A stretch of 64,000 nt of DNA, taken from assembly GCA_000004695.1 (NCBI GenBank), contig CM000150.2, positions 4,512,001 through 4,576,000 on the forward strand. Reading direction: 5' to 3'. The translations under genes and the position numbers were made by a program. Origin of the DNA: Dictyostelium discoideum (lineage: Eukaryota). This document shows, piece by piece, positions 2,485 through 50,487 of this stretch. Below the pieces are notes generated by a model, which saw only the letters and a list, made by a program, of their open reading frames with translations, searched no databases and was not told the DNA's origin. Position 1 is the stretch's first letter. Each line of letters starts with the position of its first letter.

Positions 2485-4297
2485 GGAATCAGTAGTTGGT
2501 AATATTGTTGCAAACATTGATTTACTAAGTTTCTTCTCTAATGTGAAATCATCTCTAAGTGACCATACACAAATTTCATTTGGTGATTCATTAAATGCCA
2601 CAGCAGCATGTGTATTTGATAAAGAGAATTTATTTATTTTTTCATTATTAAACTCTGGGAATTCAACTAATTCTGCTGTAATACTATTATCATTATCATT
2701 ATCATTTTCATTTTCATTTTCATTTTCATTTATTGATGACCATTTATATAATTTACCATTATCAGTTAAAGCCATTGACAAATTATCAGCAGCACCGATT
2801 TGAATTACTTTTTCATTAATTGGAATACCATTAATTTTATAAATTATATTATTTAATTTTTTATTATTATTATTATTATTATCATAATCATTCATTTGTG
2901 AAAATGGTGATAATTGTAAATCGTTACCATCTAAATATCGTAATTTACCTCTGCCCCATTGATAAATGTCACCATTTTCAGTCAACCCAATTGAATGAAA
3001 ATAACCAGCTTCAATATCAACCATTTTAAATTTATCAAGTAAATTTGAAGGTACTGGTAATTTTATATCTGGTGTTTTTGTTGTTGCTGTATTATTATTA
3101 TTATTATTATTTGAAAATGATATACCTAATTGTCCATCATCTGATTTACCACATGATAACATTTTACCATTATTAAATAAAAATAATGTATGATATAATC
3201 CATTTGATATCTTTTTAATATTATTACTATTATATTTATTTTGATTATTATTTTGATTATCATTTGAATTATTATCATCATCTTTAAATAAAATTTTATT
3301 TGGAGTTTGAATATTTAATAAAGTTCCAATACCTAATTGACCATGTTGATTATTACCCCAACTATAAATTGAATTTTGTTTTGTAATTTGATCTTTGGTG
3401 ATTGCAAAACTTGACCAACCACCAATTGAACCACCAATAACATCTGATTTTGAAAAGTTTGTAACTCTTACTGAATATGGTGAACTCTCTACAAAATTTG
3501 GAAATATACTTGTATTTGATCCATATTTATGTCCAATTTGTAAATTAAAATTTGCACCCCATGTTAACATATCATTATCATCTTTTTTATAAATAAAAAT
3601 AAATAAAAAAATAAAAAAAAAAAAAAATAAAAAAAAAAAAGTTTTTAGTTAATTTATTTCAACCCATGTGTTTTTGAGTTTTAAAAGTGTTAGGAAAGTT
3701 GGTAGATGGTTTTTATATTGAAAAAAATGAGAAAAATAGGGGGAGGGGAAGGGAGGTATGTGATTTATTTTTATTTTTATTTTTATTTTTATTTTTTTTT
3801 TTTATAAATAATGATAATAAATATTTACTTGTAAATGCACATGAGTGTAAAAATGTTGATTTTAAAGATTTTACAGAATATTCTATAAATTGTTCATTAA
3901 ATACTAATGTTGATTCAGATTTCCAATCACCTAAACCTAATTGACCTTGACTATTAACACCAATAGAGTAGATTGCAGTTTTAATATCATCATTATTTTT
4001 TAAATTACTCCAATTGAATCCATTTTGTAATTTTTCAATTTTTCCACCTTTAATTGCACTACCTAATGTAACTTTCTTTTTTTTTGGGATACCACTATTT
4101 TCATCATTATCTTTTTTACCAAATAATTTTGAAAAAAAAGTTCTTTTTATTGTTAAATTCGAATTATTATTATAATTATTGTAATTAAATAAATTATAGT
4201 TATTTTTATTATAATTATTTAATATAAAATTTCTACTACAAATTTTAAGAGTAGTAGAAGTAGATGTTTGATGGATATTCTTTAAAATTGATTGCAT
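2326..4297 (-). CDS. RCC1-repeat (regulator of chromosome condensation-like) protein, two exons (4297..~3834 and ~3576..2326)
   Basis: The minus ORFs at 2326..3570 and 3713..4501 carry RCC1 blade signatures: GVNSQGQLGLGD, SWGNNQHGQLGIG and YQWGRGK. The ATG of MQSILKN lies at 4297..4295. The two ORFs are in different frames, so an AT-rich intron is required; my best boundaries are donor GTAAAT near 3833 and acceptor ..aaaaaAG at 3577. The protein has poly-N and poly-D/N low-complexity inserts. Confidence 0.6.
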
Positions 4298-11480: not shown

Positions 11481-12638
11481 TTATAAAGTTGGAACAGTGA
11501 CATTCTTATTTTCTTTATTTTTTCCTTTTTCTTTTTCTTTTTCTCTTTCTTCCCTTTCTCTTTCTTTTTTTTTTAAAACTATATTTGCAGTATATAAATA
11601 AAATAAAAGTTCAATATTTTTACAAGATAATAAAGGTTGATCATTTTCATTTTCATTCTCATTTTCATTTTGATTTGAATTATTAATATTTGAATTTGTT
11701 TGTTGTTGAATTGATAAAACTAATTTAAAAATTTTATTAAATTCCTCTATATTAAATGGAATATTATTATTATTTTCATTACTATTATTATTATTATTAT
11801 TATTATTATTTTCAGAATATTCTTCAATAATTGTTGGATGATATTGTTCAATCATTTTTAAAATTATATTATAAGTACCATTTGGACAAATTGTAGTTTC
11901 AGAATTTGAAGTGAATAAATAAAAAATGATTCTAAATTGGTCTCTATTTATAGACGTTTCTGAATTTAATGAGGGTACTTTTAAAACATTTCTTAAAATT
12001 AATGATAATTTCTCTGTTGGGAAATTTCTATTTGATGAAGGTTGAATTAAATCTGGTTGTCTTTGAATTAAATACTCCCAATAACTATGTAAAAATTGAT
12101 TTAAAAATTGTAAACTAATAAAACTATTTTCATTTTTATTATTATTATTTTCATTCTTCTTTTCATTCTTTGTGAAAATTGAATCAATTTGCTGAAATTC
12201 ATCATAATCAAAGAAACAACCATGAAAATGAATTTCAATATTATTATTAGCTGTATTGCTAATATTATTATTATTATTATTGTTTGTTGAATGTTGTTGT
12301 TGTTGTTGTTGTTGTTTCTTTTTAACTAAAACTAGTTGACAATTTAATGGATATTTATTTTGTGTTTTAATTAAATCATTTATTGTTTGTTTATAATTGA
12401 ATAATTTACCAGAATAAAGAAATTTGAAATTGGTTTCTTCTTCTTCTTTATTTTTTGAATTTTCAATTTCATTACTAAATAACTCTTTTGGTTTATTTAA
12501 AATTAAATAATCCTCTACTTTTTTAAATGTCATTTCTTTTTCCAATAAACAAACAAATTGATGTTTTCTATCAATAATAAATCTTACTGATACCTTATTA
12601 CCATTATTACTATTTGTTCCATTATCTAAATTTTCCAT
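11481..12638 (-). CDS. Hypothetical 385-aa protein with poly-N and poly-Q inserts and a K/E-rich C-terminus
   Basis: This is a single long minus ORF starting MENLDNGTNSNNGNKVSVRFIIDRKHQFVCLLEKEMTFKKVEDYLILNKPKELF. Its codon usage matches the neighbouring genes. I see no recognisable domain. Confidence 0.45.
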   Translation of the reverse strand: MENLDNGTNSNNGNKVSVRFIIDRKHQFVCLLEKEMTFKKVEDYLILNKPKELFSNEIENSKNKEEEETNFKFLYSGKLFNYKQTINDLIKTQNKYPLNCQLVLVKKKQQQQQQQHSTNNNNNNNISNTANNNIEIHFHGCFFDYDEFQQIDSIFTKNEKKNENNNNKNENSFISLQFLNQFLHSYWEYLIQRQPDLIQPSSNRNFPTEKLSLILRNVLKVPSLNSETSINRDQFRIIFYLFTSNSETTICPNGTYNIILKMIEQYHPTIIEEYSENNNNNNNNNSNENNNNIPFNIEEFNKIFKLVLSIQQQTNSNINNSNQNENENENENDQPLLSCKNIELLFYLYTANIVLKKKEREREEREKEKEKGKNKENKNVTVPTL

Positions 12639-13063: not shown

Positions 13064-13868
13064 TTAGTTTTAGTTTGTTAAAAACAAAAAAAAAAAAAAT
13101 TTTGATAATTATCCAGTTTAGTTTTTTTTTTTGATTTTAAATATTTTTAGTTTTCTTATTTTATTAAATAACTTTTTTTTTTTTGCCTTATTAAATCATG
13201 ATTATTGTTTGTTTATACTTGGAAATGCACAATGTTGTTAAATTCTTTCGTTTCAATGAATACTACTTTTGCTCAGATATTATTATTATTATTATTAATT
13301 TGATATATTTAAACATTTGAGTAAATTACTTTTTCATTGGCACCGTCCTTGAAAACTCGATTATCGTTATTATCTATTTTTGGAGAATAATTAAAAAAAA
13401 AAAAAAAAAAAAAATTAAAGTGTCTTTTCAATTTAAATAATTCCTATTTTATCAATTGTTTATTTTTTATTTTTTACTATTTTAGAATCAATAAATTATA
13501 GATATTCTTAAAAATGATAGATTTGCCAATAAAAAAAAAAAAAAAAATTAAATGGTTTATTATTTATCTAACATTATAAATTAATTCTTTTAATTTATTG
13601 AAATATTGTTTAATGTGTGAAATTATTTATCAAACAAATTGTGAAGTTTTTTTTTTTTTTTTTTTATAAATCTAACTAATTTTATATTATTATTTTCACT
13701 TAATAATTTGTTAATTTTACTATTTTTTGCTAGTTTGTCTTATCTAGATTTCTTTGTATTTATATGTACATAAAGTAAATAATATTACAAAAATAATAAT
13801 AATATATATACATATATTAAAAAAAAAAACTGTTAAAAAAAAAAAATAGAGGGTCAAAAAAAATATGA

Positions 13869-13917
<49 letters not shown>

Positions 13918-13964
13918 TATTTGTACAAATTAATTTAAAAGATGGTTTGCACACAAAAGTTAAA

Positions 13965-13996
<32 letters not shown>

Positions 13997-15246
13997 ATAT
14001 ATTAAAAAACAAAAAAAAAAAAAAAAAACTGTTTAATTTAATTCAATAATAAAAATGTGAGGGGAAACCCACCATACAACTACACACCACATAAAAAAAA
14101 AAAAAATTAAAAAATTAAATTCAAAATTCCAAATAATATATATAGAAATATTGATATAATTTATATTAATAATATAAAAATTTTACACATAAATGGAGAG
14201 AGATATAAAAAAAAAAAAATAAAAAAAAAAAAAAATTTAAATTTTTTTAAGAGGGGAAAAAAAAAAGTGTTGGTGAGATACTAAATATTTAGTGTTGGTT
14301 TTTATTTTTTTGCAGTTAAAAAAATTTTATTTATTTTGAATTAAATTTTTTTTTTTTTTTTTTTTTTTTGGCTCATAAAAAAAAAAAAAATTTTTACATG
14401 GAGCTGCACACAAAATTTTTTACTCATTAATTTTAAACGCAGCATAGAGTTTGTATGTATAGGTTTTCTATTATAGTATAGTATTATATAATATTATATG
14501 TTGTGTAGTATTTGGAACCGTTTTTTTTTTTTTTTTTTTTTTTTTTTGTTTTTTTTTTTGTTTTTTTTTTTTTTTTTCAAAATTTCAAAAATTAGTTGTT
14601 ACTCCTTCTATAATATATTATTATTTATATAAACTATAAAATAATAATTTTTTTTAAAAAATCATGTAGAAAATTATAATTTCACCTTTTTTTTTTTTTT
14701 TTTTTTTTATTTAACAAGTTTTAGAAAAAAAAAAAAAAAAAAATAAAAAAATAATAATAATAAAAATAATAATAATAAATAAAAGAAAAAAAAAAAAAAA
14801 AAAATTTATAGAGGAGAAAAAAAAAAAAATAATAACAAAAAAACAATTTAATAAAATGTAAAATTCGTTTGTTTAAAAAAAAAAAAATTTTATTTTATTT
14901 ATTTATTCATTTTTATAATTATCTCTTTCTTTTTTTTTTTTTTCAATTTTTTTTTCAATTTTTTTATTTTTTTTTAGCCGTTAGACTTTTTGCCCACTTT
15001 TTCAAAAATATCACATTTTTTTTTTAAAAATTTTTTTCAAAAAAAATACAAAAAAAAAAAAAATTAGAAACTAACAAATTTTTATTTTTTTATTTTATTT
15101 TATTTTTTTTTTTTAAAAAACTATTTTTATTTTTTTAAAATTATCTCTATCTTTCTAAATATATATAATAGTTTTTTTTTTAAAACTTTTTATATAAATT
15201 ATATATATATACTCTTTTTAAAAGAAAACAAATAATCAACTAAAAA

Positions 15247-15672
15247 ATGAGCTCATCTGATGAATCAGGATCATCATCCTCAGAATCTGAAAAGAAAGTA
15301 AAGAAGACCCCAGTCAAGAAGCCAAAGAAGGAACCAAAAGTTTCCAAAAAGGGTAAGAAAGAAGGTAAAAAAACAAAGAAGAAGCCAAAGGATGAAAATG
15401 CTCCACGTCGTTATTTATCACCATTCATCTTTTTCTCAAAGGACCACAGATCAGTAATCAAAAACTCTCATCCAAACTGTTCATTTGGTGAAATCGGTAG
15501 CTTATTAGGTCAAGAATGGGCTAAAATCTCTGCAGAGGACAAAAAGAAATACGAGAAATTAGCCGCTGAAGATAAGAAGAGATGGGAACTCGAAAAGAAA
15601 AACTATGATGAAAAATTAAAAACCCAAAGTCAAGCAGAATCTTCATCCGATAGTTCTGATGAAAGTGATTAA
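15247..15672 (+). CDS. HMG-box non-histone chromatin protein (NHP6/HMGB-like), 141 aa
   Basis: The box reads [74 protein letters not shown], a canonical HMG-box. It is flanked by lysine-rich N-terminal and Ser/Asp/Glu acidic tails and is a single exon. Confidence 0.85.
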
Positions 15673-16757
15673 ACTTTTAATTTAATTCACTCAATTATTT
15701 GTCACCACTATTACCATCATCATCATCATAATCATCATAATCAATTCATTCATCAATCAATCAATTCATCCATCATGTCTACAACCAACTGTGTCACTCT
15801 CTCTTTCTCTCTCTACCTTTGTTGTTTATTTATAAAACCCAAACCAATCAACATTTCAACCACTACCAACCAAACAAATAAATAATAATAAAAAAAAAAA
15901 AAAAAAACCAAACTTTTTTTAAATTAAAAAAGAAAAAATAAATAAAAAAAAAAAAAAATAATAATAATAATAATAATTTATAACTGTTTATTCATTTTTT
16001 TATTTTATTTTTTTTTTATTTATTTATTTATTTAAATAAAGATATCAAACCTTCTTTGGAAAATTCAAGATTTTTTGATTTAATCAAAAATACCAAAACA
16101 AATATGTGTTGATAAATTTCAACATTTTCCCCAATTAAAATATATTAATCGATTTTCATTAAAATCTATATACTTTTTTATAAACATTTTCTTTTAATTC
16201 ATTTTTAAAATAATTTAATTTATTATTAAATAAGAATTTTAAATTATTTTTTAATTTGTATTTGACCTATTTAAATTATTTTAAAAATACTAAAAGAAGA
16301 ATTTACTTTGGTAATAGAAATTTTTTTTTTTTTCAATTTAATTTATTTTATTTGTAGATATCTTTAGAGGTAATTTAAAAAACTGACAATTAATAATTAT
16401 TTTATTTTATTTTATTTTATTTCAATTCCTTACAAATTACGTTTTAAAAAAATCTTTCAGTATTGGGTTTAAATGGTTTTATCTCTGGAAATAAATAAAA
16501 TAGTTCGAACTTGGAAAATAATTAATTCTTTTTTTCCAAAATTAAAAAAAAAAAAATTAAAAAAAAACAATTTTTTAATTTAAAAAAAAAAAAAAAAAAA
16601 AAATTTTTAATTATAAAAAAAAAAAATTTAATTATTATTATTTTTTTTTTTTTCAATTAAAACACAATAATTTATTTTATTCATTCATTTTATTTATTTT
16701 TATTTTTTTATATTTTTTTTCATAACACTTTTTCATTCATTTATTTTTTTTACAAAA

Positions 16758-32907: not shown

Positions 32908-35900
32908 ATGGATGTAGAACAAGAACCAAAAATTGATGATGCTTTATATAGCAGACAACTTTATGCATTATCTCATGAAACAATGAAAAAAATTACATCA
33001 ACTTCAGTTTTAGTTGTAGGTTTACAAGGTCTTGGTATTGAAATTGTTAAAGATTTAAGTTTAGCAGGTGTTAAATCTGTTACATTGTATGATAAAGAAT
33101 TAGTTGAAATTAAAGATTTGTCTTCTCAAGTAAGTTTTATATTTATTATTTTTACTTTCACGCACAAAATTTTTTTTTTTTTACTATGGTGATGTTCATT
33201 TAAAAAAAAAAAAAAAAAAAAAAAAAATTTTTTTTTTTAAAAATTTGGAAAAAAAATAGAAAAATAATAATAGTAATTAATTAATTTCCCTCTTTATTTC
33301 TTTTTATTTTTATTTTAAATTTTTAGTTTTATTTTTCACCAGAACAAGTTGGTAAAGTTGGTAGAGCAGATGCATGTTTCCAAAAAGTTGTAGATTTAAA
33401 TAATTATGTTAGAATTGATGTACATAATGGAGAATTAAGTGATGAATTCTTAAAGAAATTCAATGTTGTAGTATTAGCCAATCAACCATTAGCATTACAA
33501 CTCAAAGTGAATGAATTTTGTCATGCAAATAAAATTCATTTCATTAGTGTTGAAACCAGAGGTGTTTTTGGTCAATTATTCAATGATTTTGGTGAACAAT
33601 TTACAATCACCGATACAAATGGTGAGAATCCAAATGCTTATATGATCAGTTCAATCAGTCAAGATAAAGAAGGTATTGTAACCGTTGTTGAAGAACAAAA
33701 ATTACAACTTTTAGATGGTGATCTTGTTACATTCAAAGAAGTCAATGGTATGTCAGCTCTTAATGATCTTCCACCACAAAAAATTAAAACCATCTCTCCA
33801 TTAACTTTTTCAATTGGTGATACTACAAATCTTCCACCATATACTTCTGGTGGTTATGTTACTGAAGTTAAACAACCAAAAGTTGTTGATTTTGTAAGTT
33901 TTTTTATTTATTTTATGATATATAGATAGATAAATATAAATATATATATATATATATATATTAATTTTTTATTTATTTTTATTTTTTTTAAAAAAGAAAC
34001 CATTAAAAAATATTTTAGAAAGTGGTGAAAATATTTTTATTACAGATGATTTTAAATTTACACAACCAACCAATTTATTAGCAGGTTTCCAAGCAATTCA
34101 TAAATTTGCAGAGAAAAATAAACATATGCCAAGACCACATAATAAGGAAGATGCAAACGCTGTAATTGAGATTGCCAAAGGATTATTAAAGAAACCAGAT
34201 GATGAACTTGATGAAAAGATGATCACTCAATTATCATTTGGAGCACAAGGTGATATTGTACCAATGCAAGCAATTCTTGGTGGTATTACAGCTCAAGAGG
34301 TTTTGAAAGCATGTTCAGGTAAATTCACACCAATTCACCAATTGGCATTCTTTGATAGTGTCGAATGTTTACCAGAGGATTTAGAAACTCTCCCAGAAGA
34401 GGAGTTTCAACCAATTGGTTCACGTTACGATGGTCAAATCATTACCTTTGGTAAGACACTTCAAAATAAAATTGAAAATTTGAATTACTTTTTAGTTGGT
34501 GCCGGTGCTATCGGTTGTGAAATGTTAAAGAATTTCGCAATGATGGGTTTAGGTGCTGGTCCAAAGGGTTTGGTACATGTCACCGATATGGATACAATTG
34601 AAAAATCAAATCTCAATCGTCAATTCCTTTTCCGTTCATCCGATATTCAACAATTGAAATCTCAAACCGCTGCAAACGCTGTCAGAGTTATGAATCCAGA
34701 TCTCAATGTAAAGGCATACAGTCTTCGTGTTGGACCAGATACTGAAAGTCATTACAATGAAGAGTTTTTCAATTCATTGGATGGTGTTTGTAATGCATTG
34801 GATAATGTTGAAGCACGTTTATATATGGATTCTCAATGTGTTTACTATGGTAAACCATTATTAGAATCTGGTACATTGGGTACCAAAGGTAACACTCAAG
34901 TCGTTGTACCACATCTCACCGAATCCTATAGTTCAAGTCGTGATCCACCAGAGAAAGGCATTCCAGTTTGTACCCTTCACAATTTCCCAAATGCCATTGA
35001 ACATACCATTCAATGGGCTCGTGATACTTTTGAAGGTCTCTTTAAGAACAATGCAGACAATGTAAACTCTTACTTAACCAATCCAGCTTACGTTCAATCA
35101 TTGAAAACTCAAAATCCATTTGTTCGTTTAGAAACTCTTGCCTCAATTAAAGCTTCACTTATGGATCGTCCATTGGATTTCAATCAATGTATCGCTTGGG
35201 CTCGTCTAAAATTCGAAGAATACTTTAACAACAATATCGAACAATTACTTTACAATTTCCCAAAGGATATGGTCACCACAACTGGTACACCATTTTGGAG
35301 TGGTCCAAAACGTGCTCCAACCCCATTGAAATTCGATGTTGAAAATCCATTACATTTGGAATTCATTGTTGCCGCTGCAAATTTACGTGCCTTCAATTAT
35401 GGTATCAAAGCTGAAACAAACATTGAAGTCATCCAAAAACAAGCTGCCAATGTTATTGTTCCAGATTTCACTCCAAAGAAGGTTAAGATTCAAACCTCTG
35501 AAAATGAACCAGCTCCATCTTCAAACACTCAACAAGCTGGTGGTGATGCTGAAGATGATCAATGTGATACCATTTTATCACAACTTCCACAACCAAGTGA
35601 AATGGCTGGTTACAAAATTAACTCTATTCAATTTGAAAAGGATGATGATACCAATCATCATATCGATTTCATTACCGCTACCTCAAATTTAAGAGCTACC
35701 AACTATGCAATCAGTCCAGCTGATAAACATAAGACCAAAGGTATCGCCGGTAAAATCATTCCAGCTTTAGTTACCACTACTGCCGTAGTTGCTGGTTTCG
35801 TTTGTATCGAATTGATTAAAGTTATTCAAAATAAAGCTTTGGAGAAATATAAGAGCACCTTTATGAATTTAGGTATCCCATTCTTTGGTTTCGTTGAACC

Positions 35901-36249
35901 AATTGCCGCCCCAAAGAACAAAATTCGTGAAGGCTGGACTTGGACACTTTGGGATCGTTTCGATGTTGATGGTGATATCACTCTCAAGGAGTTTTTAGAT
36001 CTCTTTGAAAAGAAACATGGTTTGGATATTTCAATGCTCTCTTGTAAAGTTACACTTTTATATGCTCTCTTCACTGATAAGAAAACTAAAGAGGAAAGAT
36101 TAAAGATGAAAATCTCACAACTCTATGAAACCCTCTCAAAGAAACCATTACCAAAAGATAAGAAATATTTATTACTTGAAATTTGTTGCAATGATACTGA
36201 AACTGGTGATGATGTTGATGTACCAAGTGTCCGTTATAAGTATAATTAA
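32908..36249 (+). CDS. uba1: Ubiquitin-activating enzyme E1 (UBA1); exons 32908..33129, 33327..33893 and 33997..36249, about 1013 aa
   Basis: The sequence aligns end-to-end with human UBA1: DDALYSRQLYALSHETMKK, FLVGAGAIGCEMLKNFAMMGLG, TDMDTIEKSNLNRQFLFR, KPLLESGTLGTKGN, the catalytic-Cys region PVCTLHNFPNAIEHTIQWAR, PFWSGPKRAPTPL, and the C-terminus LEICCNDTETGDDVDVPSVRYKYN. Both donors are GTAAGT (33130, 33894) and the acceptors are tttttAG (33326) and aaaaAG (33996). Confidence 0.9.
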
Positions 36250-36486
36250 AAAAAAAAAAAAAAAAAAAAAGATTTATTCTTTATCTATACACATACAAAT
36301 ATTTTATTTTATAATAAAAAAAAAAAAAATTTTAAAAAAAAAACATATATATATTTATAGTTTTATTATTAACTTTTTCATAATTTTAAATCAAACACAT
36401 TTCAATTGGATTAATAAATAAATTTAATTATATTTATAAATTTGTAATTTCTTTGTTTTTTTAATTTTTTTTGTTGGTTGTGTAGA

Positions 36487-36570
<84 letters not shown>

Positions 36571-37115
36571 TCCAAACCTATTTTTAAATTATTCAATCAC
36601 ATCATAGTATACTTTTAAATACGAATTATTGAAAAAGAGCATGGAATTTCATAATTTTCCAATTTTAATTTTGGATATTGATTAGTTATTTTATTAAATA
36701 ATCCAATATAATATTTTAATAAATTTAAATTTTTTAAGTGAAACGAAATTAAATATTTTTTATTACATAATAATTGAGGAAATTCTTAACAAAGGAAATC
36801 CAACATTTCAATTGACCTTGATATTAATAATGGGAAATGATATGAGCGGTTAATTGTAGTGGGAATATTTTTAAAATAATCATTATTATCATTTCCATTT
36901 TCACCTTTTAATTTATTAATAAAATGTTTAAATAATTTAACACTATCGAAACCAACTAAACAAAAAAATAAAAACCAAATATTTAATTTCTTATTTTTAT
37001 TAATTTCTTTATTTTTAATCCCATCAATTGCTAAATCAATAAAATTAATTTGTTTTTTTAAATCATTTTTACAATTTGAAAATAATTAATGATTTTTAAT
37101 TTCTGTTTTATTTTT

Positions 37116-37147
37116 AGAATCTTCATACATAATGGTATGAAGATTCT
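37116..37147. repeat. Perfect 13-bp inverted repeat (agaatcttcatac ... gtatgaagattct) with a 6-nt loop
   Basis: Direct reading at 37116..37128 and 37135..37147. It lies about 500 bp beyond the 3' end of the TRE3-like element. Confidence 0.8.
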
Positions 37148-37638
37148 AAAAATGGTTTATAAGATATATTATATCTGATTTATTTGTTGATAGCATTGTT
37201 AATTTTAAAAAAAGATCTTTATTTAATGAAATAAAGTATCCCAAATTTCATAGGTTTTCACAGTTGGTTCTATTAATTTAATTAATTGTTCAATTACTTG
37301 TATTGAATCACTTTCAATTGCTTTATTTAAAAATCTTTGGTTAAATATTCATGCTTGTAAAAAAGAAAAGTAATAATGGAAAAAAATAAGAATAAAGACC
37401 AATGTTCAATTTGTAAATATTAATAAACTTTTTTTTATTTTTATTTTTTTTTTAAATATATAATTTTATTTTATTTTTTTATTTTATTTTTTAAAAAAAA
37501 AAAAATATTTAAAGAAAAATAAATAAAAAAATATAAAAATTAATTTAAACTTTACTAAAATATGGAAAATTCGATTAGAATCGAATTATAAAATAATATA
37601 TTTAAAAAATACAATTATAAACCGAAAAAAGATAGGTT

Positions 37639-37655
37639 TTAGTGAGGGCACTTTT
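37639..37655. repeat. Target-site duplication (3' side, left copy) of the TRE3-like insertion
   Basis: ttagtgagggcactttt, identical to 39609..39625. Confidence 0.7.
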
Positions 37656-39608
37656 TTTTTTTTTTTTTTTTTTAATATTGGATTAACAAGATTGATATAT
37701 GTCCATCTGTGTTAATACGAGTTTTATTTAATATTTATTTAAAGGCTTATCATTTAAGCTGAAGGGTTATTTTAATCATATGAATTGATCAAAAGATATA
37801 ATATTTGGGAGAGATGATTCTGTAATACAATAGTAATTAGCTGTTGTTTTTCTTAGCTTGATCGTTGAAGTGAGAAGGATCTTAGGATCTTTGAAGTTAT
37901 TATGGTCTTTTGCTGATAAGTTTTTCAGATCTTTTGCTTTTTTGATGTATTCTAGAGTGGCCAATTTGTGCCATTTCTTTAGAAGGGAGCTGTATGATAG
38001 TGATTCATCTGTTAAAGGATCTTCACTGTATATTTGATTGCAAATCCAAATCCAAATGTTGTGGAGGATAAGGGCCATTAGGTTTCTATATGCGAATGAT
38101 CTGGTTAGATCATAGTCTATTGCTTTATAGTTCCATTCAAAGTATTCTTTGTGGAATCTGTGGTTGGCGTAATCTGCATTCACTTCTTGATCTTTTTTGG
38201 CTGTCGGTGATAATTTTGGAGTTATTCTATTAATGAAATTGTTATTTTGCCTAATTCTTGTATGGTGCCAGTTTTTACCTTTGCCTGTGGTAATATAGAT
38301 GAAATTTTTGAGTTTATTTATTTTTATGAATTGTTTTGTTTTCTTGCATGAGAAGAACAGGTGACCGTATGGGTCTTTGCTCATATCTTCTTTGCAGAGT
38401 GGGCATTGTTTGTTGTGAAGGTAGTTTATTGGAAGGCATCTGGCATGGAATCTAAACATTGTGTCTCTTGTTTTAGGGTCTTTTATCTTCAGTATGTTGT
38501 TGAAGAGTTGATTATAGCTGTAGCCTCTTAAGTTTAGAGATGATTGGAATTCCGTTTTAGGGATGGTTGGATTTTGGTCTTGAATTGTGGTATACCATTC
38601 TGCCAGTGAAAGTGGTTGTCCATTTTCGTTTTTTATGGATGTGAGATTATTGTTGAAGATTGCTTTTTTTATTCTTATTTTGTTCCATTCGTCTAAGTTT
38701 TCTTTTAGGTATCTGGATGTGAATTTGTTTTTTTGGATCTGATATTCCCAGCTTTTGTGATGAGATGAGTTTGTTTGTTTGGTTTCTAGTGCTAGGATGA
38801 ACTGGTTTATGATCCAAAGTTTCTGCGCCAGTTGTCTCAATTCTATATTCCAAATGTTCCAGCCCCCTACTTTTAGTGGGTATCTTGCTCTTTTGGTTCT
38901 CATTAAATTAATAACTTGAAATCCACTAGCATTTTTGTTGTTTGGTGCCGATAAAAACCATTCGACTAATTTATTGATTTGGTTTAATTCCTCTTCATTA
39001 AAATTCTCTACATATGAATAGTAGGTTAATTTAGAGAGTGCGAATGCTTTGAGGATGTTGGTTTTGGTTTTGATTGTTGAGTCAGTGGTTTTCCATAGTA
39101 CTAAGGATGATCTTATTGTGTTTAATATTTCTGGCATTTTTCTTGTTATCCCTTTGCCTGTGAAGAAGTATCCCAAGTATCTTTCTGGATTTGTAGATAT
39201 TGGAATTCTTTGGTTGGTATTGTCTGGGTTGCCTATAAGAATTGATGAAGATTTGTCGATGTTTAGTTTTGAGGAAGTGGCTTTGCAAAATGAATTGAAG
39301 TGTTGTAGTACTAATTCAAGTTGTTGAGAGTCTGGGACCATTGAAGCCGAGTCGTCTGCAAAGCTTTGGAATTTCTCTCTGTGGTTGCTGTTGTTTAGAG
39401 GAAGGCCAGTAATTAGGTCATCTTGTAAAATTTTTCTAGCTAAAGCCTCTATTACAAGGACGAACAGGGTGGGTGATAGTGGATCTCCTTGTTTAACTCC
39501 TCTTTTGATCTCAAAGGGTATAGTAGTTCTACCATTAATTTCAATTCTTGCATCAGATTTGGTGAGTAGATTCATTATCAGGTTGATTATATTGGTTGGA
39601 ATGTTGTC
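37656..39608 (-). mobile_element. 5'-truncated TRE3-like (tRNA-gene-targeted, non-LTR/LINE) retrotransposon, about 1.95 kb, inserted about 106 bp downstream of tRNA-Ile in the same orientation
   Basis: The element is bounded by a 17-bp direct repeat, ttagtgagggcactttt, at 37639..37655 and 39609..39625. Its 3' end is a poly(A) tail of about 20 nt on the minus strand (poly-T on plus, 37656-37675). It contains a reverse-transcriptase ORF on the minus strand (37776..39575). The 5' end abuts the downstream flank of the tRNA past the exB box, which is the placement expected of the Dictyostelium TRE3 family. Confidence 0.7.
37776..39575 (-). CDS. Reverse transcriptase (ORF2 fragment) of the TRE3-like non-LTR retrotransposon
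   Basis: The RT motifs are GVKQGDPLSPTLFVLVIEAL and the FADD motif-C variant (QSFADDSASMV). Further on is a Cys/His cluster CPLCKEDMSKDPYGHLFFSC. The ORF is open to the 5' truncation point, so there is no native start. Confidence 0.7.
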   Translation of the reverse strand: MNLLTKSDARIEINGRTTIPFEIKRGVKQGDPLSPTLFVLVIEALARKILQDDLITGLPLNNSNHREKFQSFADDSASMVPDSQQLELVLQHFNSFCKATSSKLNIDKSSSILIGNPDNTNQRIPISTNPERYLGYFFTGKGITRKMPEILNTIRSSLVLWKTTDSTIKTKTNILKAFALSKLTYYSYVENFNEEELNQINKLVEWFLSAPNNKNASGFQVINLMRTKRARYPLKVGGWNIWNIELRQLAQKLWIINQFILALETKQTNSSHHKSWEYQIQKNKFTSRYLKENLDEWNKIRIKKAIFNNNLTSIKNENGQPLSLAEWYTTIQDQNPTIPKTEFQSSLNLRGYSYNQLFNNILKIKDPKTRDTMFRFHARCLPINYLHNKQCPLCKEDMSKDPYGHLFFSCKKTKQFIKINKLKNFIYITTGKGKNWHHTRIRQNNNFINRITPKLSPTAKKDQEVNADYANHRFHKEYFEWNYKAIDYDLTRSFAYRNLMALILHNIWIWICNQIYSEDPLTDESLSYSSLLKKWHKLATLEYIKKAKDLKNLSAKDHNNFKDPKILLTSTIKLRKTTANYYCITESSLPNIISFDQFI

Positions 39609-39625
39609 TTAGTGAGGGCACTTTT
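39609..39625. repeat. Target-site duplication (5' side, right copy) of the TRE3-like insertion
   Basis: ttagtgagggcactttt, identical to 37639..37655. Confidence 0.7.
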
Positions 39626-39667
39626 AAAGTTGGTTATAATTCTAATTCATTCTGATTCCTCTTCTGG

Positions 39668-39680
39668 GAATTGAACCCTT
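39668..39680 (-). promoter_or_regulatory. External B-box (exB), a duplicated Pol III B-box about 35 bp downstream of tRNA-Ile copy 1
   Basis: The minus strand reads GGGTTCAATTCCC, matching the B-box consensus GGTTCGANTCC. The same element with conserved flanks occurs after copy 2 at 50369..50381. This is a known Dictyostelium tRNA-gene feature. Confidence 0.6.
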
Positions 39681-39714
39681 AATCTAGTTTTCAAATGCCT
39701 TAAAAAGGATCTGT

Positions 39715-39787
39715 GCTCGATGCAGGGATCGAACCTGCGACCGTGGCGTTATTAGCACCACGCTCTGCCGACTGAGCTAATCGAGCA
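39715..39787 (-). tRNA. tRNA-Ile (anticodon AAU), 73 nt
   Basis: The minus-strand sequence folds as a cloverleaf. The acceptor is GCTCGAT/ATCGAGC, the D-arm GCTC-AGTCGGCA-GAGC, the anticodon stem-loop TGGTG-CTAATAA-CGCCA (anticodon AAT), the variable loop CGGTC, and the T-arm GCAGG-TTCGATC-CCTGC, with an A discriminator. The internal A-box TAGCTCAGTCGG and B-box GGTTCGATCC are present. Confidence 0.9.
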
Positions 39788-39837
39788 TCCGTGAAAAAAA
39801 AAATTAAAATTGGCCAAAAAATGGGTAATTTTTTTAG

Positions 39838-40534
39838 GGGAAGATGAGACTTCAGAACATATATTCTTCAACTGCAAAGCCCACATCAAAAACACACAAG
39901 AAATCTTCAACTACACCTTAACCAAGTGTGGACACACCACTCACACCTGGAATTTTAAGATTTTAAAACATCCACAAATTGCACTAATAGCCAATTTAAT
40001 AGCTATTATATTCGAAAAAATCTGGCACAAAAGAAACAAACTCATCCACGATGAAATAGAAATAATAATTCATAGACCAAAAGTCATACGTGAACTAATT
40101 AAAACACAAAGAGCTGCATGGGAGAGGACACAAGCGGTTATAAACAAAACATTAAGAATCAAATCAAAGCAACGGCAAGAAGAACAAAATAAATTAGACT
40201 CATTAATCTCGCTAAAGCTATTACAATTTAGCAGACAACGGAACTCACATCTTCACGCAATAGCACTTCCCAAACATCAATCATGAAGCTGATGATAAAA
40301 TAAAAAAAGATTTAGAAAAAAATTTGGACAAAAAAGATGTTTTAATCAAAAGTAATAATACAATTCGAAATTCGAAACAAAAAAAAAAAAAAAAAATAAA
40401 GTAAACTGACCCCTCTTTTAGAGACCCTGTAAAAAAAAAAAAAAAAAAAACTAAAAATAAAATGAGATCTGGCATCTCAAGGAGAAGCAACTAATAATTG
40501 CGTTATCCAATTCAAAAAAAAAAAAGGTAATTTT
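39838..40534 (+). mobile_element. 5'-truncated TRE5-like non-LTR retrotransposon fragment, about 0.7 kb, 50 bp upstream of tRNA-Ile copy 1, head-to-head with the tRNA
   Basis: It is flanked by a 13-bp direct repeat, ggtaattttttta, at 39825..39837 and 40535..40547. It ends in an A12 tail (40523..40534). It carries the C-terminal end of an ORF2-like reading frame (..FLGEDETSEHIFFNCKAHIKN.., a Cys/His knuckle typical of LINE ORF2 termini, ending at 40286), followed by a 3' UTR. The position about 50 bp upstream of a tRNA gene is diagnostic of the TRE5 (DRE) family. Confidence 0.6.
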
Positions 40535-40794
40535 TTTATGTTGGATTCATGAAATGACCAATTATTTTCGATATTGTTAGTCATTTGGTTTGCAGACTTA
40601 TTAAAAGAACTAACAAAATAAGTTGGTGAAAATGTGTCCTGATGATTAGAGTTCACTACTCGAGAGTTGTAACCAAAAGAAAATAAAATAAAACCCCATC
40701 TATAATTAAATGTGTTTTAGCTTTTATCTTTTGATTGATTGATTTTAAAATAACAACCTCACTTTTACAAGTTTGTTGGGTTTTATTTTAAAAT

Positions 40795-41078: not shown

Positions 41079-41462
41079 CTAGATACTTACATTACCATCA
41101 ATATCGTTAGAAGCATAACAGCTACTACTCCAATGAGAACCACGACCACATCTAAAACAACAATTACTTTCGTTGTAACTTGATTTATGGACTTGTTCAT
41201 GAATATTTTTTTTGAGTACAACTAAATTACTATATCTATTATCAGATGTATCTTTATTAATATGGTGGACCACTTCATTAGCGTATAACTCTCTGCCAAC
41301 TTTTCTTTGACCAACTGTACGATGAGTAAATTTCCAACTTTTACTATTTTCATCATAGTATTTACGATAACCACTTGGATTAATATAAATTTTTAAATCT
41401 CTTGGTCGTTGTTGTTGTTTTTGTCTTTGCTCTTTTTTATTGTTGTAATTGTTTTTTAACAT
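41079..41462 (-). CDS. Intronless 127-aa protein: an HNH_3-type (phage homing-endonuclease-like) nuclease domain fused to a C-terminal CCHC zinc knuckle
   Basis: The real ATG is at 41462..41460 and the stop at 41079. The HNH core is PSGYRKYYDENSKSWKFTHRTVGQRKVGRELYANEVVHHINKDTSDNRYSNLVVLKKNIHEQVHK. This matches the HNH_3 pattern HRxV ... V-H-H-I-(N/D)-x-D-x-x-D-N-R-x-x-N-L ... H-x-x-x-H. It is followed by CFRCGRGSHWSSSC, a C-x2-C-x4-H-x4-C retroviral-type zinc knuckle. The N-terminus is basic (KKEQRQKQQQRPR). Confidence 0.6.
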   Translation of the reverse strand: MLKNNYNNKKEQRQKQQQRPRDLKIYINPSGYRKYYDENSKSWKFTHRTVGQRKVGRELYANEVVHHINKDTSDNRYSNLVVLKKNIHEQVHKSSYNESNCCFRCGRGSHWSSSCYASNDIDGNVSI

Positions 41463-42018: not shown

Positions 42019-44699
<2,681 letters not shown>

Positions 44700-50368: not shown

Positions 50369-50381
50369 GGGAATTGAACCC
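50369..50381 (-). promoter_or_regulatory. External B-box (exB) about 34 bp downstream of tRNA-Ile copy 2
   Basis: The minus strand reads GGGTTCAATTCCC, in the same context as copy 1 (tcctttttaa...aagggttcaattccca). Confidence 0.6.
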
Positions 50382-50414
50382 TTAATATCGTTTCCTTTAA
50401 TTAAAAAGGATGTG

Positions 50415-50487
50415 TGCTCGATGCAGGGATCGAACCTGCGACCGTGGCGTTATTAGCACCACGCTCTGCCGACTGAGCTAATCGAGC
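50415..50487 (-). tRNA. tRNA-Ile (anticodon AAU), second copy, 73 nt, identical to 39715..39787
   Basis: The 73 nt are identical to copy 1 (tgctcgatgcagggatcgaacctgcgaccgtggcgttattagcaccacgctctgccgactgagctaatcgagc on the plus strand). No retroelement is seen at -50 or +100 of this copy. Confidence 0.9.

Follow-up and report, generated by a model that had tools for sequence, protein, structure and literature searches.

TRE3-A, formerly named Tdd-3, is an L1-clade non-LTR retroelement of Dictyostelium discoideum that is targeted to tRNA genes. The TRE3-A consensus has a length of 5,229 bp and contains two ORFs (PMC5006619, Table 1). A −1 frameshift and the domain order APE-RT-ZF have been described for this element (PMC5911963), and in the published architecture of TRE ORF2 a zinc-finger domain is located at the end (PMC5006619). 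A TRE3 element is defined as lying 40-150 bp downstream from a tRNA gene, with which it shares the orientation, and behind an internal or external B box (PMC5911963); integration about 40-150 bp downstream from the tRNA gene is also given in PMC5006619. The subfamilies TRE3-B, -C and -D share the integration window, the orientation and the ORF2 domain order with TRE3-A, but their consensus lengths of 5,279 bp (B), 4,734 bp (C) and 1,559 bp (D, partial) differ from the ~5,229 bp found for the family described here. TRE5-A, -B and -C are related APE-RT-ZF non-LTR elements, which are likewise targeted to tRNA genes. TRE5 elements are located about 50 bp (44-54 bp) upstream of tRNA genes and in the opposite orientation (PMC5911963), whereas the block analyzed here lies downstream and in the same orientation.

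The window, i.e., the whole stretch of D. discoideum DNA that was analyzed, has a length of 64 kb. Within it, the block at 37656-39608 on the minus strand is almost certainly a dead-on-arrival, 5′-truncated TRE3 element, most likely TRE3-A, whose insertion downstream of tRNA-Ile(AAT) took place by target-primed reverse transcription. It is an ordinary, already catalogued TRE3 copy that shows the textbook behavior of its family. The insertion and its target site comprise the following features:

37639..37655, no strand: target-site duplication (TSD), tRNA-distal copy, abutting the poly(A) end (exact 17-mer)
37656..37673, minus strand: poly(A) tail of 18 nt, a T-run on the plus strand (read from the sequence)
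37674..37775, minus strand: 3′ UTR of 102 nt between stop codon and poly(A) (read from the sequence)
37776..39606, minus strand: 5′-truncated ORF2 remnant ending in a stop codon at 37776-37778 and containing the C-terminal RT part, the region beyond it and the zinc knuckle (open frame, 610 codons)
38346..38405, minus strand: C-terminal zinc knuckle CPLCKEDMSKDPYGHLFFSC, CX2CX10HX4C (seen in the translations)
39168..39599, minus strand: retained part of the reverse transcriptase domain including KQGDPLSP and the FADD catalytic motif (Pfam RVT_1)
39607..39608, minus strand: two extra junction nucleotides, GA on the minus strand, which match neither the family consensus nor the target
39609..39625, no strand: TSD, tRNA-proximal copy, abutting the truncated 5′ end (second exact 17-mer)
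39666..39678, minus strand: external B box GGGTTCAATTCCC behind the tRNA gene (motif GGTTCAATTCCC found at 39666-39677)
39713..39786, minus strand: tRNA-Ile(AAT), the targeted Pol III gene (ARAGORN and direct reading)
39725-39735, minus strand: internal B box of tRNA-Ile(AAT)

The 1,953 bp of the block are bracketed by an exact direct repeat of the 17-mer TTAGTGAGGGCACTTTT, which occurs exactly twice in the 64-kb window and for which none of 100 dinucleotide-preserving shuffles resulted in a match. Since the two copies are flanked by different bases on either side (left, t vs. c; right, a t-run vs. aaag), 17 bp is the maximal repeat length. Identical 17-mers around a block of 1.95 kb had been noted in the preliminary description, and both the repeat and the block could be verified. 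A BLAST search revealed no other copy of the block in the rest of the window. A third near-copy of the 17-mer at 11966 was rejected: it has two mismatches (20 of 22 positions identical when extended), is located inside an unrelated ORF without extended homology and does not exceed chance level, since 4 of 1,911 random segments score as high.

The minus-strand reading frame (DNIPTNIINLIMNLL...KQGDPLSPTLF...FADD...) comprises 610 codons and is open from the first base of the block to the stop codon at 37776-37778. Residues 4-147 of the 610-aa translation match the Pfam profile RVT_1 at positions 97-203 of 205 (E=1.9e-11). As this match starts at profile position 97, the RT domain is cut mid-way, in agreement with the earlier observation that the block begins abruptly inside an RT frame. 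The poly(A) tail, previously estimated at about 20 nt, has a length of 18 nt, or up to 22 nt if four T's of the TSD are included. It is preceded by the conserved 3′ end of the family, ...TCCAATATT(A)n, which is identical in all full-length copies, and the 3′ UTR aligns end to end with the copies at locus L010 (99.5% identity). At the 5′ junction, the window copy reads GACAACATTCC compared to ..ATCAACATTCC in the L010 and L006 copies.

In total, the window copy starts at about position 3,292 of a ~5,229-bp element and runs to its end, comprising the last ~1,935 bp plus the poly(A) tail; this bears out the proposed 5′ truncation. While the last ~37% of the element is kept, the front ~60% is missing, including the 5′ UTR with the promoter, ORF1, the endonuclease domain and the N-terminal half of the RT. 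Due to these losses, the copy cannot move on its own.

At the amino acid level, the window ORF shares 99% identity with a cluster of Dictyostelium ORF2 sequences that has 79 members, of which the full-length ones comprise 1,059 aa, and also 99% with residues 451-1059 of P0001. At the nucleotide level, two D. discoideum copies show 9 mismatches over 1,951 bp to the block (99.5% identity); for four D. citrinum copies the identity is 94.7%. The full-length relatives are ~5.23 kb long. In seven full-length or near-full-length copies, 5,219-5,223 bp were measured from CCGTACCGC to TCCAATATT, to which a 5′ run of 4-8 A's and the 3′ poly(A) are added, resulting in ~5,229 bp. Their ORF1 encodes 417 aa, and ORF2 comprises 1,261 codons in the −1 frame and overlaps the end of ORF1 by ~79 nt. 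RVT_1 was found at residues 551-798 of this ORF2 (E=1e-33) and Exo_endo_phos at residues 36-280, the latter over the whole profile and as a weak match of 18.9 bits compared to the Pfam cutoff of 24.5. The identity of the window ORF to other TRE-like D. discoideum proteins is only about 40%. One of them, P0007 (41% identity), was considered as a TRE3-B reference and discarded as uninformative, since its locus, L011, lacks a tRNA within 13 kb as well as any nucleotide similarity to the family of the window copy.

The window copy itself has the structure of a non-LTR element, with the 18-nt 3′ poly(A), a TSD of 17 bp and no terminal repeats. The sister copies carry poly(A) tails of 16-30 nt, and TSDs of 9-17 bp, each of them different, are readable at L007, L008, L010 and L012 and ambiguous at L006. 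Together with the ORF2 cluster identity and the ORF1/ORF2 layout of the relatives, the poly(A) tails and TSDs bear out the initial classification as a TRE-type non-LTR retrotransposon. [quoted passage not shown]

Both tRNA-Ile and the element are encoded on the minus strand, with the truncated 5′ end of the latter facing the tRNA. Between the 3′ end of the tRNA (39713) and the 5′ junction of the element (39608) there are 104 bp, to which the previously reported distance of 106 bp was corrected, and the external B box is located between tRNA and insertion. The insertion begins 57 bp past this external B box and 116 bp past the internal one. The orientation and the position past the external B box, both part of the preliminary description, were confirmed. 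The same motif is found behind the second tRNA-Ile of the window (50369-50380) and is conserved in the assemblies L002 and L003. In distance (104 bp), strand and position beyond the external B box, the window copy agrees, as had been proposed, with the published definition of TRE3, and it also agrees with the arrangement at six other loci of the family. At L006, L007, L008 and L012, same-strand tRNA genes are located 75-140 bp upstream of the 5′ end of the element (tRNA-Ser, -Leu, -Arg and -Asp), and at L009 and L013 tandem arrays directly follow the tRNA (tRNA-Lys and tRNA-Arg). For all six further loci with a captured tRNA, the element lies downstream and in the same orientation, either at 75-140 bp or in tandem behind an earlier copy; the L010 region reached no tRNA and was left out of this count. 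On the other side of the same tRNA-Ile, 50 bp upstream, a TRE5-type fragment with its own TSD is located at 39837-40525.

According to length (5,229 bp), −1 frameshift and abundance, the copy probably belongs to TRE3-A; the preliminary description had left the subfamily undecided. An insertion of subfamily TRE3-B, -C or -D is unlikely. TRE3-B exceeds TRE3-A in length by only 50 bp (PMC5006619, Table 1), a difference that could be obscured by the counting of the 5′ A-run and the poly(A). Against these subfamilies stand the ~5,229 bp measured in the seven relatives, their −1-frame ORF2, in line with the published TRE3-A (PMC5911963), and the size of the ORF2 cluster, which with 79 members is by far the largest among the TRE-like matches (1-3 members in the others), TRE3-A being the most abundant TRE3 (PMC5006619). 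That the fragment stems from another tRNA-associated class, namely the LTR elements Skipper-2 and DGLT-A or a TRE5 element, is extremely improbable, even though Skipper-2 also inserts downstream of tRNA genes (PMC5006619) and all of these elements encode an RT. Skipper-2 and DGLT-A are characterized by LTRs and by protease, RNase H and integrase domains, with an additional chromodomain in Skipper-2. No LTRs, RNase H, integrase or chromodomain were found; RVT_1 is the only domain detected in the window copy, the full-length relatives carry a putative APE and RVT_1 in a probable APE-RT-ZF layout, and a poly(A) tail is present. As first suggested, the RT stems from a non-LTR element and not from an LTR or DIRS element. 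With regard to TRE5, the downstream position and the same orientation of the block argue against this class, the layout of which fits the separate upstream fragment instead.

The 17-bp repeats could also represent the edges of a segmental duplication or the product of a recombination between two older elements, and the tandem TRE3 arrays behind other tRNA genes (L009, L010 and L013) make a recombination conceivable in principle. This reading has a negligible probability and is largely refuted: there are exactly two 17-mers with unrelated outer flanks and no second copy of the block in the window, and the repeats do not belong to a larger duplication, which according to the preliminary description would have refuted the insertion. 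Furthermore, one repeat abuts the poly(A) tail and the other one the truncated 5′ end, which is the signature of target-primed reverse transcription, the copies at L007, L008, L010 and L012 have distinct TSDs of their own, and the near-match at 11966 is at chance level.

For the insertion of the TRE3 copy by target-primed reverse transcription, the following course can be proposed. The ORF2 endonuclease, recruited near Pol III factors bound to the B box, would have nicked the plus strand at 5′-GCACTTTT^AAAG-3′, and the exposed T-run would have annealed to the poly(A) of the element and served as the primer for the cDNA. Either reverse transcription or 5′ joining may then have stopped early within the RT-coding region, with two extra nucleotides being added at the junction, and a second nick on the other strand, 17 bp away, would have led to the duplication. 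We infer the nick-site and TFIIIC steps from L1-type target-primed reverse transcription and from published work on TRE elements. Like this locus, 5′-truncated insertions of mammalian L1 carry a poly(A), a TSD (7-20 bp) and additional nucleotides at the 5′ junction, with a putative nick at TTTT^AA; L1 differs by the lack of tRNA-gene targeting and by an unrelated ORF1.

From its first ATG, the window ORF is 100% identical to DDB_G0270770 of strain AX4, which is annotated with 599 aa as [quoted passage not shown]. Rather than being a host gene, DDB_G0270770 represents the remnant of a truncated TRE3 ORF2, read from an internal ATG, and the relevance of the present result lies mostly in the correct annotation of this gene model. 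A literature search revealed no mention of DDB_G0270770 and no TRE3-A primers. It is very improbable that the uninterrupted remnant of 599-610 codons (RT thumb, C-terminal region and zinc knuckle) is not inert; in this case it might be transcribed, for instance by read-through from the adjacent Pol III gene or from a neighboring promoter, and either act as a source of antisense or small RNAs or modulate TRE3 activity as a dominant-negative fragment of ORF2.

The locus was compared with five further assemblies (L001-L005), among which no base-exact empty site was found. The insertion is shared solely by L001, which has the same genotype and differs by homopolymer-length indels only. In L002 (strain GCA_054859385.1), uba1, tRNA-Ile, the external B box and abpC are kept at the orthologous locus and no TRE sequence is present. 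There, the flank on the side of the tRNA is homologous again from window position 39622, which falls within the TSD; the flanks contain indels, are 83-92% identical and lack a conserved 17-mer. For about 630 bp of the opposite flank of the window copy, neither L002 nor L003 has a counterpart. L004 is too diverged for an empty-site comparison, and L005 (D. citrinum) is rearranged and contains no tRNA. A relatively recent insertion, as proposed in the preliminary description, is reasonable given the 9 mismatches in 1,951 bp, the uninterrupted ORF, the perfect TSD and the absence from the divergent strain L002.

In L003 (strain GCA_054859355.1), a different 5′-truncated TRE3-type fragment was inserted independently, 96 bp behind the same tRNA. 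The same orthologous tRNA-Ile has been hit independently by two different TRE3 lineages in sister strains and offers a natural replicate for measuring the precision of TRE3 targeting. One empty and one independently occupied locus point to the repeated use of the same tRNA "safe harbour", as would be anticipated from what has been published on their biology.

The sequence between the two 17-mers (37656–39608, minus strand) is a known and annotated 5′-truncated TRE3 insertion of the AX4-lineage chromosome. Read from the first ATG, its ORF has 599 aa and matches DDB_G0270770 of D. discoideum AX4 at 100% identity, which means that DDB_G0270770 is a transposon remnant. The G + C content of the block is about 35%, compared with roughly 10–20% in the intergenic DNA around it. 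The following features were assigned:

33507–36249, plus strand: uba1, flanking gene
37656–37673, minus strand: poly(A) of 18 nt, a T-run on the plus strand
Between stop codon and poly(A), minus strand: 3′ UTR of the block, 102 nt
Block's first base to stop codon at 37776–37778, minus strand: open frame of 610 codons
38346–38405: CX2CX10HX4C knuckle, CPLCKEDMSKDPYGHLFFSC
39666–39677: B-box-like motif GGTTCAATTCCC, between tRNA-Ile and the block
39713–39786, minus strand: tRNA-Ile(AAT), detected with ARAGORN
42019–44418, minus strand: filamin/ABP-120 gene, flanking

The 64-kb window contains exactly two copies of the 17-mer TTAGTGAGGGCACTTTT (37639–37655 and 39609–39625), and no match was found in 100 dinucleotide-preserving shuffles, even when up to two mismatches were allowed. 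Since the neighbouring bases outside the two copies are unlike, the repeat length is exactly 17 bp, and the intact target-site duplication (TSD) of the preliminary description could be verified. Segmental duplication or recombination as the source of the repeats was rejected on account of the copy number of only two, the unrelated outer flanks, the uniqueness of the block in the window and an arrangement with the polarity of target-primed reverse transcription (TPRT). A further near-match to the 17-mer at 11966 (20/22) lies inside an unrelated ORF and is at chance level.

In the block translation, Pfam RVT_1 matches residues 4–147 with profile positions 97–203 of 205 (E = 1.9e-11). As the match enters the profile at position 97, the RT domain starts mid-domain at the 5′ junction. 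The description as a 5′-truncated element was right: the copy corresponds approximately to position 3,292 through the end of the full-length element, preceded at the 5′ junction by the two non-consensus nucleotides GA, and is non-autonomous because the 5′ UTR, ORF1, APE and half of the RT are missing. Only small numerical corrections were necessary: the enclosed sequence comprises 1,953 bp, in agreement with the described 1.95 kb, and the tail 18 instead of about 20 nt. The position downstream of tRNA-Ile on the same strand was likewise correct, and the distance to the 5′ junction was changed from 106 to 104 bp.

With 99% identity, the 610-aa translation matches a cluster of 79 Dictyostelium proteins grouped at 90% identity, in which full-length members count 1,059 aa from the first ATG. 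Seven loci with cluster proteins were analyzed, four from D. citrinum (L006–L009) and three from D. discoideum (L010, L012, L013). From its third base to the poly(A), the block shows 99.5% nucleotide identity to two D. discoideum copies (9 mismatches in 1,951 bp) and 94.7% to the D. citrinum copies. Full-length elements begin with an A-run followed by CCGTACCGC and end with TCCAATATT followed by poly(A), the span between both motifs being 5,219–5,223 bp. They contain an ORF1 of 417 aa and, in the −1 frame and overlapping its end, an ORF2 of 1,261 codons with a strong RVT_1 match at residues 551–798 and a full-length yet sub-threshold Exo_endo_phos match at residues 36–280. Each readable copy (L007, L008, L010, L012) has its own TSD of about 9–17 bp; the TSD is ambiguous at L006, and tandem arrays are present at L009 and L013. 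In four loci, a tRNA gene on the same strand is located just upstream of the element.

Distance between the tRNA gene and the 5′ end of the element
L006: tRNA-Ser, about 117 bp
L007: tRNA-Leu, about 140 bp
L008: tRNA-Arg, about 101 bp
L012: tRNA-Asp, about 75 bp

At L009, tRNA-Lys is followed by a short, older TRE3-type 3′ fragment (about 2950–3035) and then by a full-length copy. L013 (3676–8407) carries three tandem 5′-truncated copies, the first 88 bp behind tRNA-Arg, and L010 (1–8305) a head-to-tail TRE3 tandem, the tRNA of which lies outside the fetched locus. TRE3 integrates 40–150 bp downstream of tRNA genes and oriented as they are, behind the internal/external B box (PMC5911963; PMC5006619), and tandem copies arise by sequential hits (PMC5911963; PMC5006619 and its Table S2 note). 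The tRNA-linked placement of the relatives is thus published TRE3 behaviour, and the tandems behind single tRNA genes are consistent with repeated targeting of one tRNA gene. At L013, a TRE5-like element with a 444-aa ORF1 was also seen upstream of tRNA-Arg in opposite orientation.

The TRE3-like identity proposed earlier is therefore supported by the cluster match, the architecture of the relatives and the tRNA-linked position. An LTR, DIRS or Skipper-2 origin was rejected, as the block has no LTRs, integrase or RNase H, ends in poly(A) and has relatives with RT and a candidate APE; position and orientation of the block exclude TRE5. The consensus of TRE3-A measures 5,229 bp, that of TRE3-B 5,279 bp, that of TRE3-C 4,734 bp and that of TRE3-D, which is partial, 1,559 bp (PMC5006619, Table 1); TRE3-A is the most abundant TRE3 (PMC5006619) and its ORF2 requires a −1 frameshift (PMC5911963). 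Given a length of about 5,223 bp plus a 5′ A-run, an ORF2 in the −1 frame and a cluster that dominates in size, the block probably belongs to TRE3-A; provided that it is a TRE3, this assignment is inferred from these properties with fairly high confidence.

For comparison of the insertion site, orthologous loci in other assemblies were found via uba1 cluster members. L001 (GCA_054883475.1) differs from the window over 6.2 kb only in homopolymer-length indels; it hence shares the window's genotype and is no independent strain. L002 (GCA_054859385.1) retains uba1, tRNA-Ile, the external B (ex-B) box, the HNH/CCHC gene and the filamin gene. No TRE-like coding sequence was found in this locus and its homology to the tRNA-side flank (86.6% over 179 bp) begins at window position 39622, within the final four TSD bases, so the element is absent. 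The strain is divergent (83–92% intergenic identity) and the 17-mer is not conserved; L002 provides an orthologous locus that is unoccupied, but no empty site exact to the base. On the other flank, about 630 bp (37007–37638) have no counterpart in L002 or L003. L003 (GCA_054859355.1), another strain labelled D. discoideum, contains at 14905–15789 a different 5′-truncated TRE3-type fragment with about 67% amino-acid identity to the block's family, which begins 96 bp behind the orthologous tRNA-Ile in the same orientation and ends with AATATT(A)30. It lacks a clean TSD, about 42 bp of the target are apparently deleted in comparison with L002, and it is an independent hit on the tRNA-Ile also targeted in the window. 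L004 and L005 are too diverged or rearranged for empty-site comparison.

The poly(A) end adjoins the TSD copy ending in GCACTTTT, followed by AAAG in the reconstructed target. By analogy with L1-type TPRT, the ORF2 endonuclease would nick the plus strand at TTTT^AAAG and the T-run would prime on the poly(A). The synthesis of cDNA or the 5′ joining would then halt within the RT-coding region with addition of the two extra nucleotides, and a nick of the other strand 17 bp away would create the TSD. According to the literature, Pol III factors bound to the B box/ex-B are presumably involved in recruitment. That the copy is nearly identical to its sisters, with an unbroken ORF and a perfect TSD, fits a fairly recent insertion, as had been suggested.

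Between uba1 and the TRE3, the intergenic DNA (36250–37640) is evolutionarily unstable and includes a trinucleotide repeat tract (about 36487–36568). In the homologous region of L004 (D. cf. discoideum, 13769–16214), a 746-aa gene is called that is not called in the AX4-lineage assembly. In L005 (D. citrinum, GCA_054859325.1), the uba1 gene order is rearranged, with a PATROL1-like gene immediately after uba1 and an inverted filamin gene; the 23-kb locus contains no tRNA-Ile. Within the window, a second tRNA-Ile(AAT) (50414–50487, minus strand) with the same GGTTCAATTCCC ex-B 33 bp downstream (50369–50380) has no TRE on either side and is an unoccupied paralogous target.

Across the tRNA-Ile at 39713–39786, a second 5′-truncated non-LTR fragment (39837–40525, 689 bp, plus strand) was identified; it begins 50 bp upstream of the tRNA and runs in opposite orientation, the way TRE5 elements are arranged. 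It comprises an ORF2 tail of 149 aa with a HIFFNC zinc knuckle, 3′ modules rich in A and a poly(A) of 12 nt, and the exact 13-bp TSD GGTAATTTTTTTA lies on both sides (39824–39836 and 40526–40538). As its database relatives, one of which is AX4 DDB_G0270274, are all fragments of at most 232 aa and only a partial TRE5-C consensus of about 0.9 kb is known, the fragment may be TRE5-C. Between it and the filamin gene, a 127-aa ORF (41079–41462, minus strand) with Pfam HNH_3 endonuclease (E = 3e-13) and zf-CCHC_5 (E = 3e-7) matches is conserved as a gene call in L001–L003 and may be a host gene or the relic of another mobile element.
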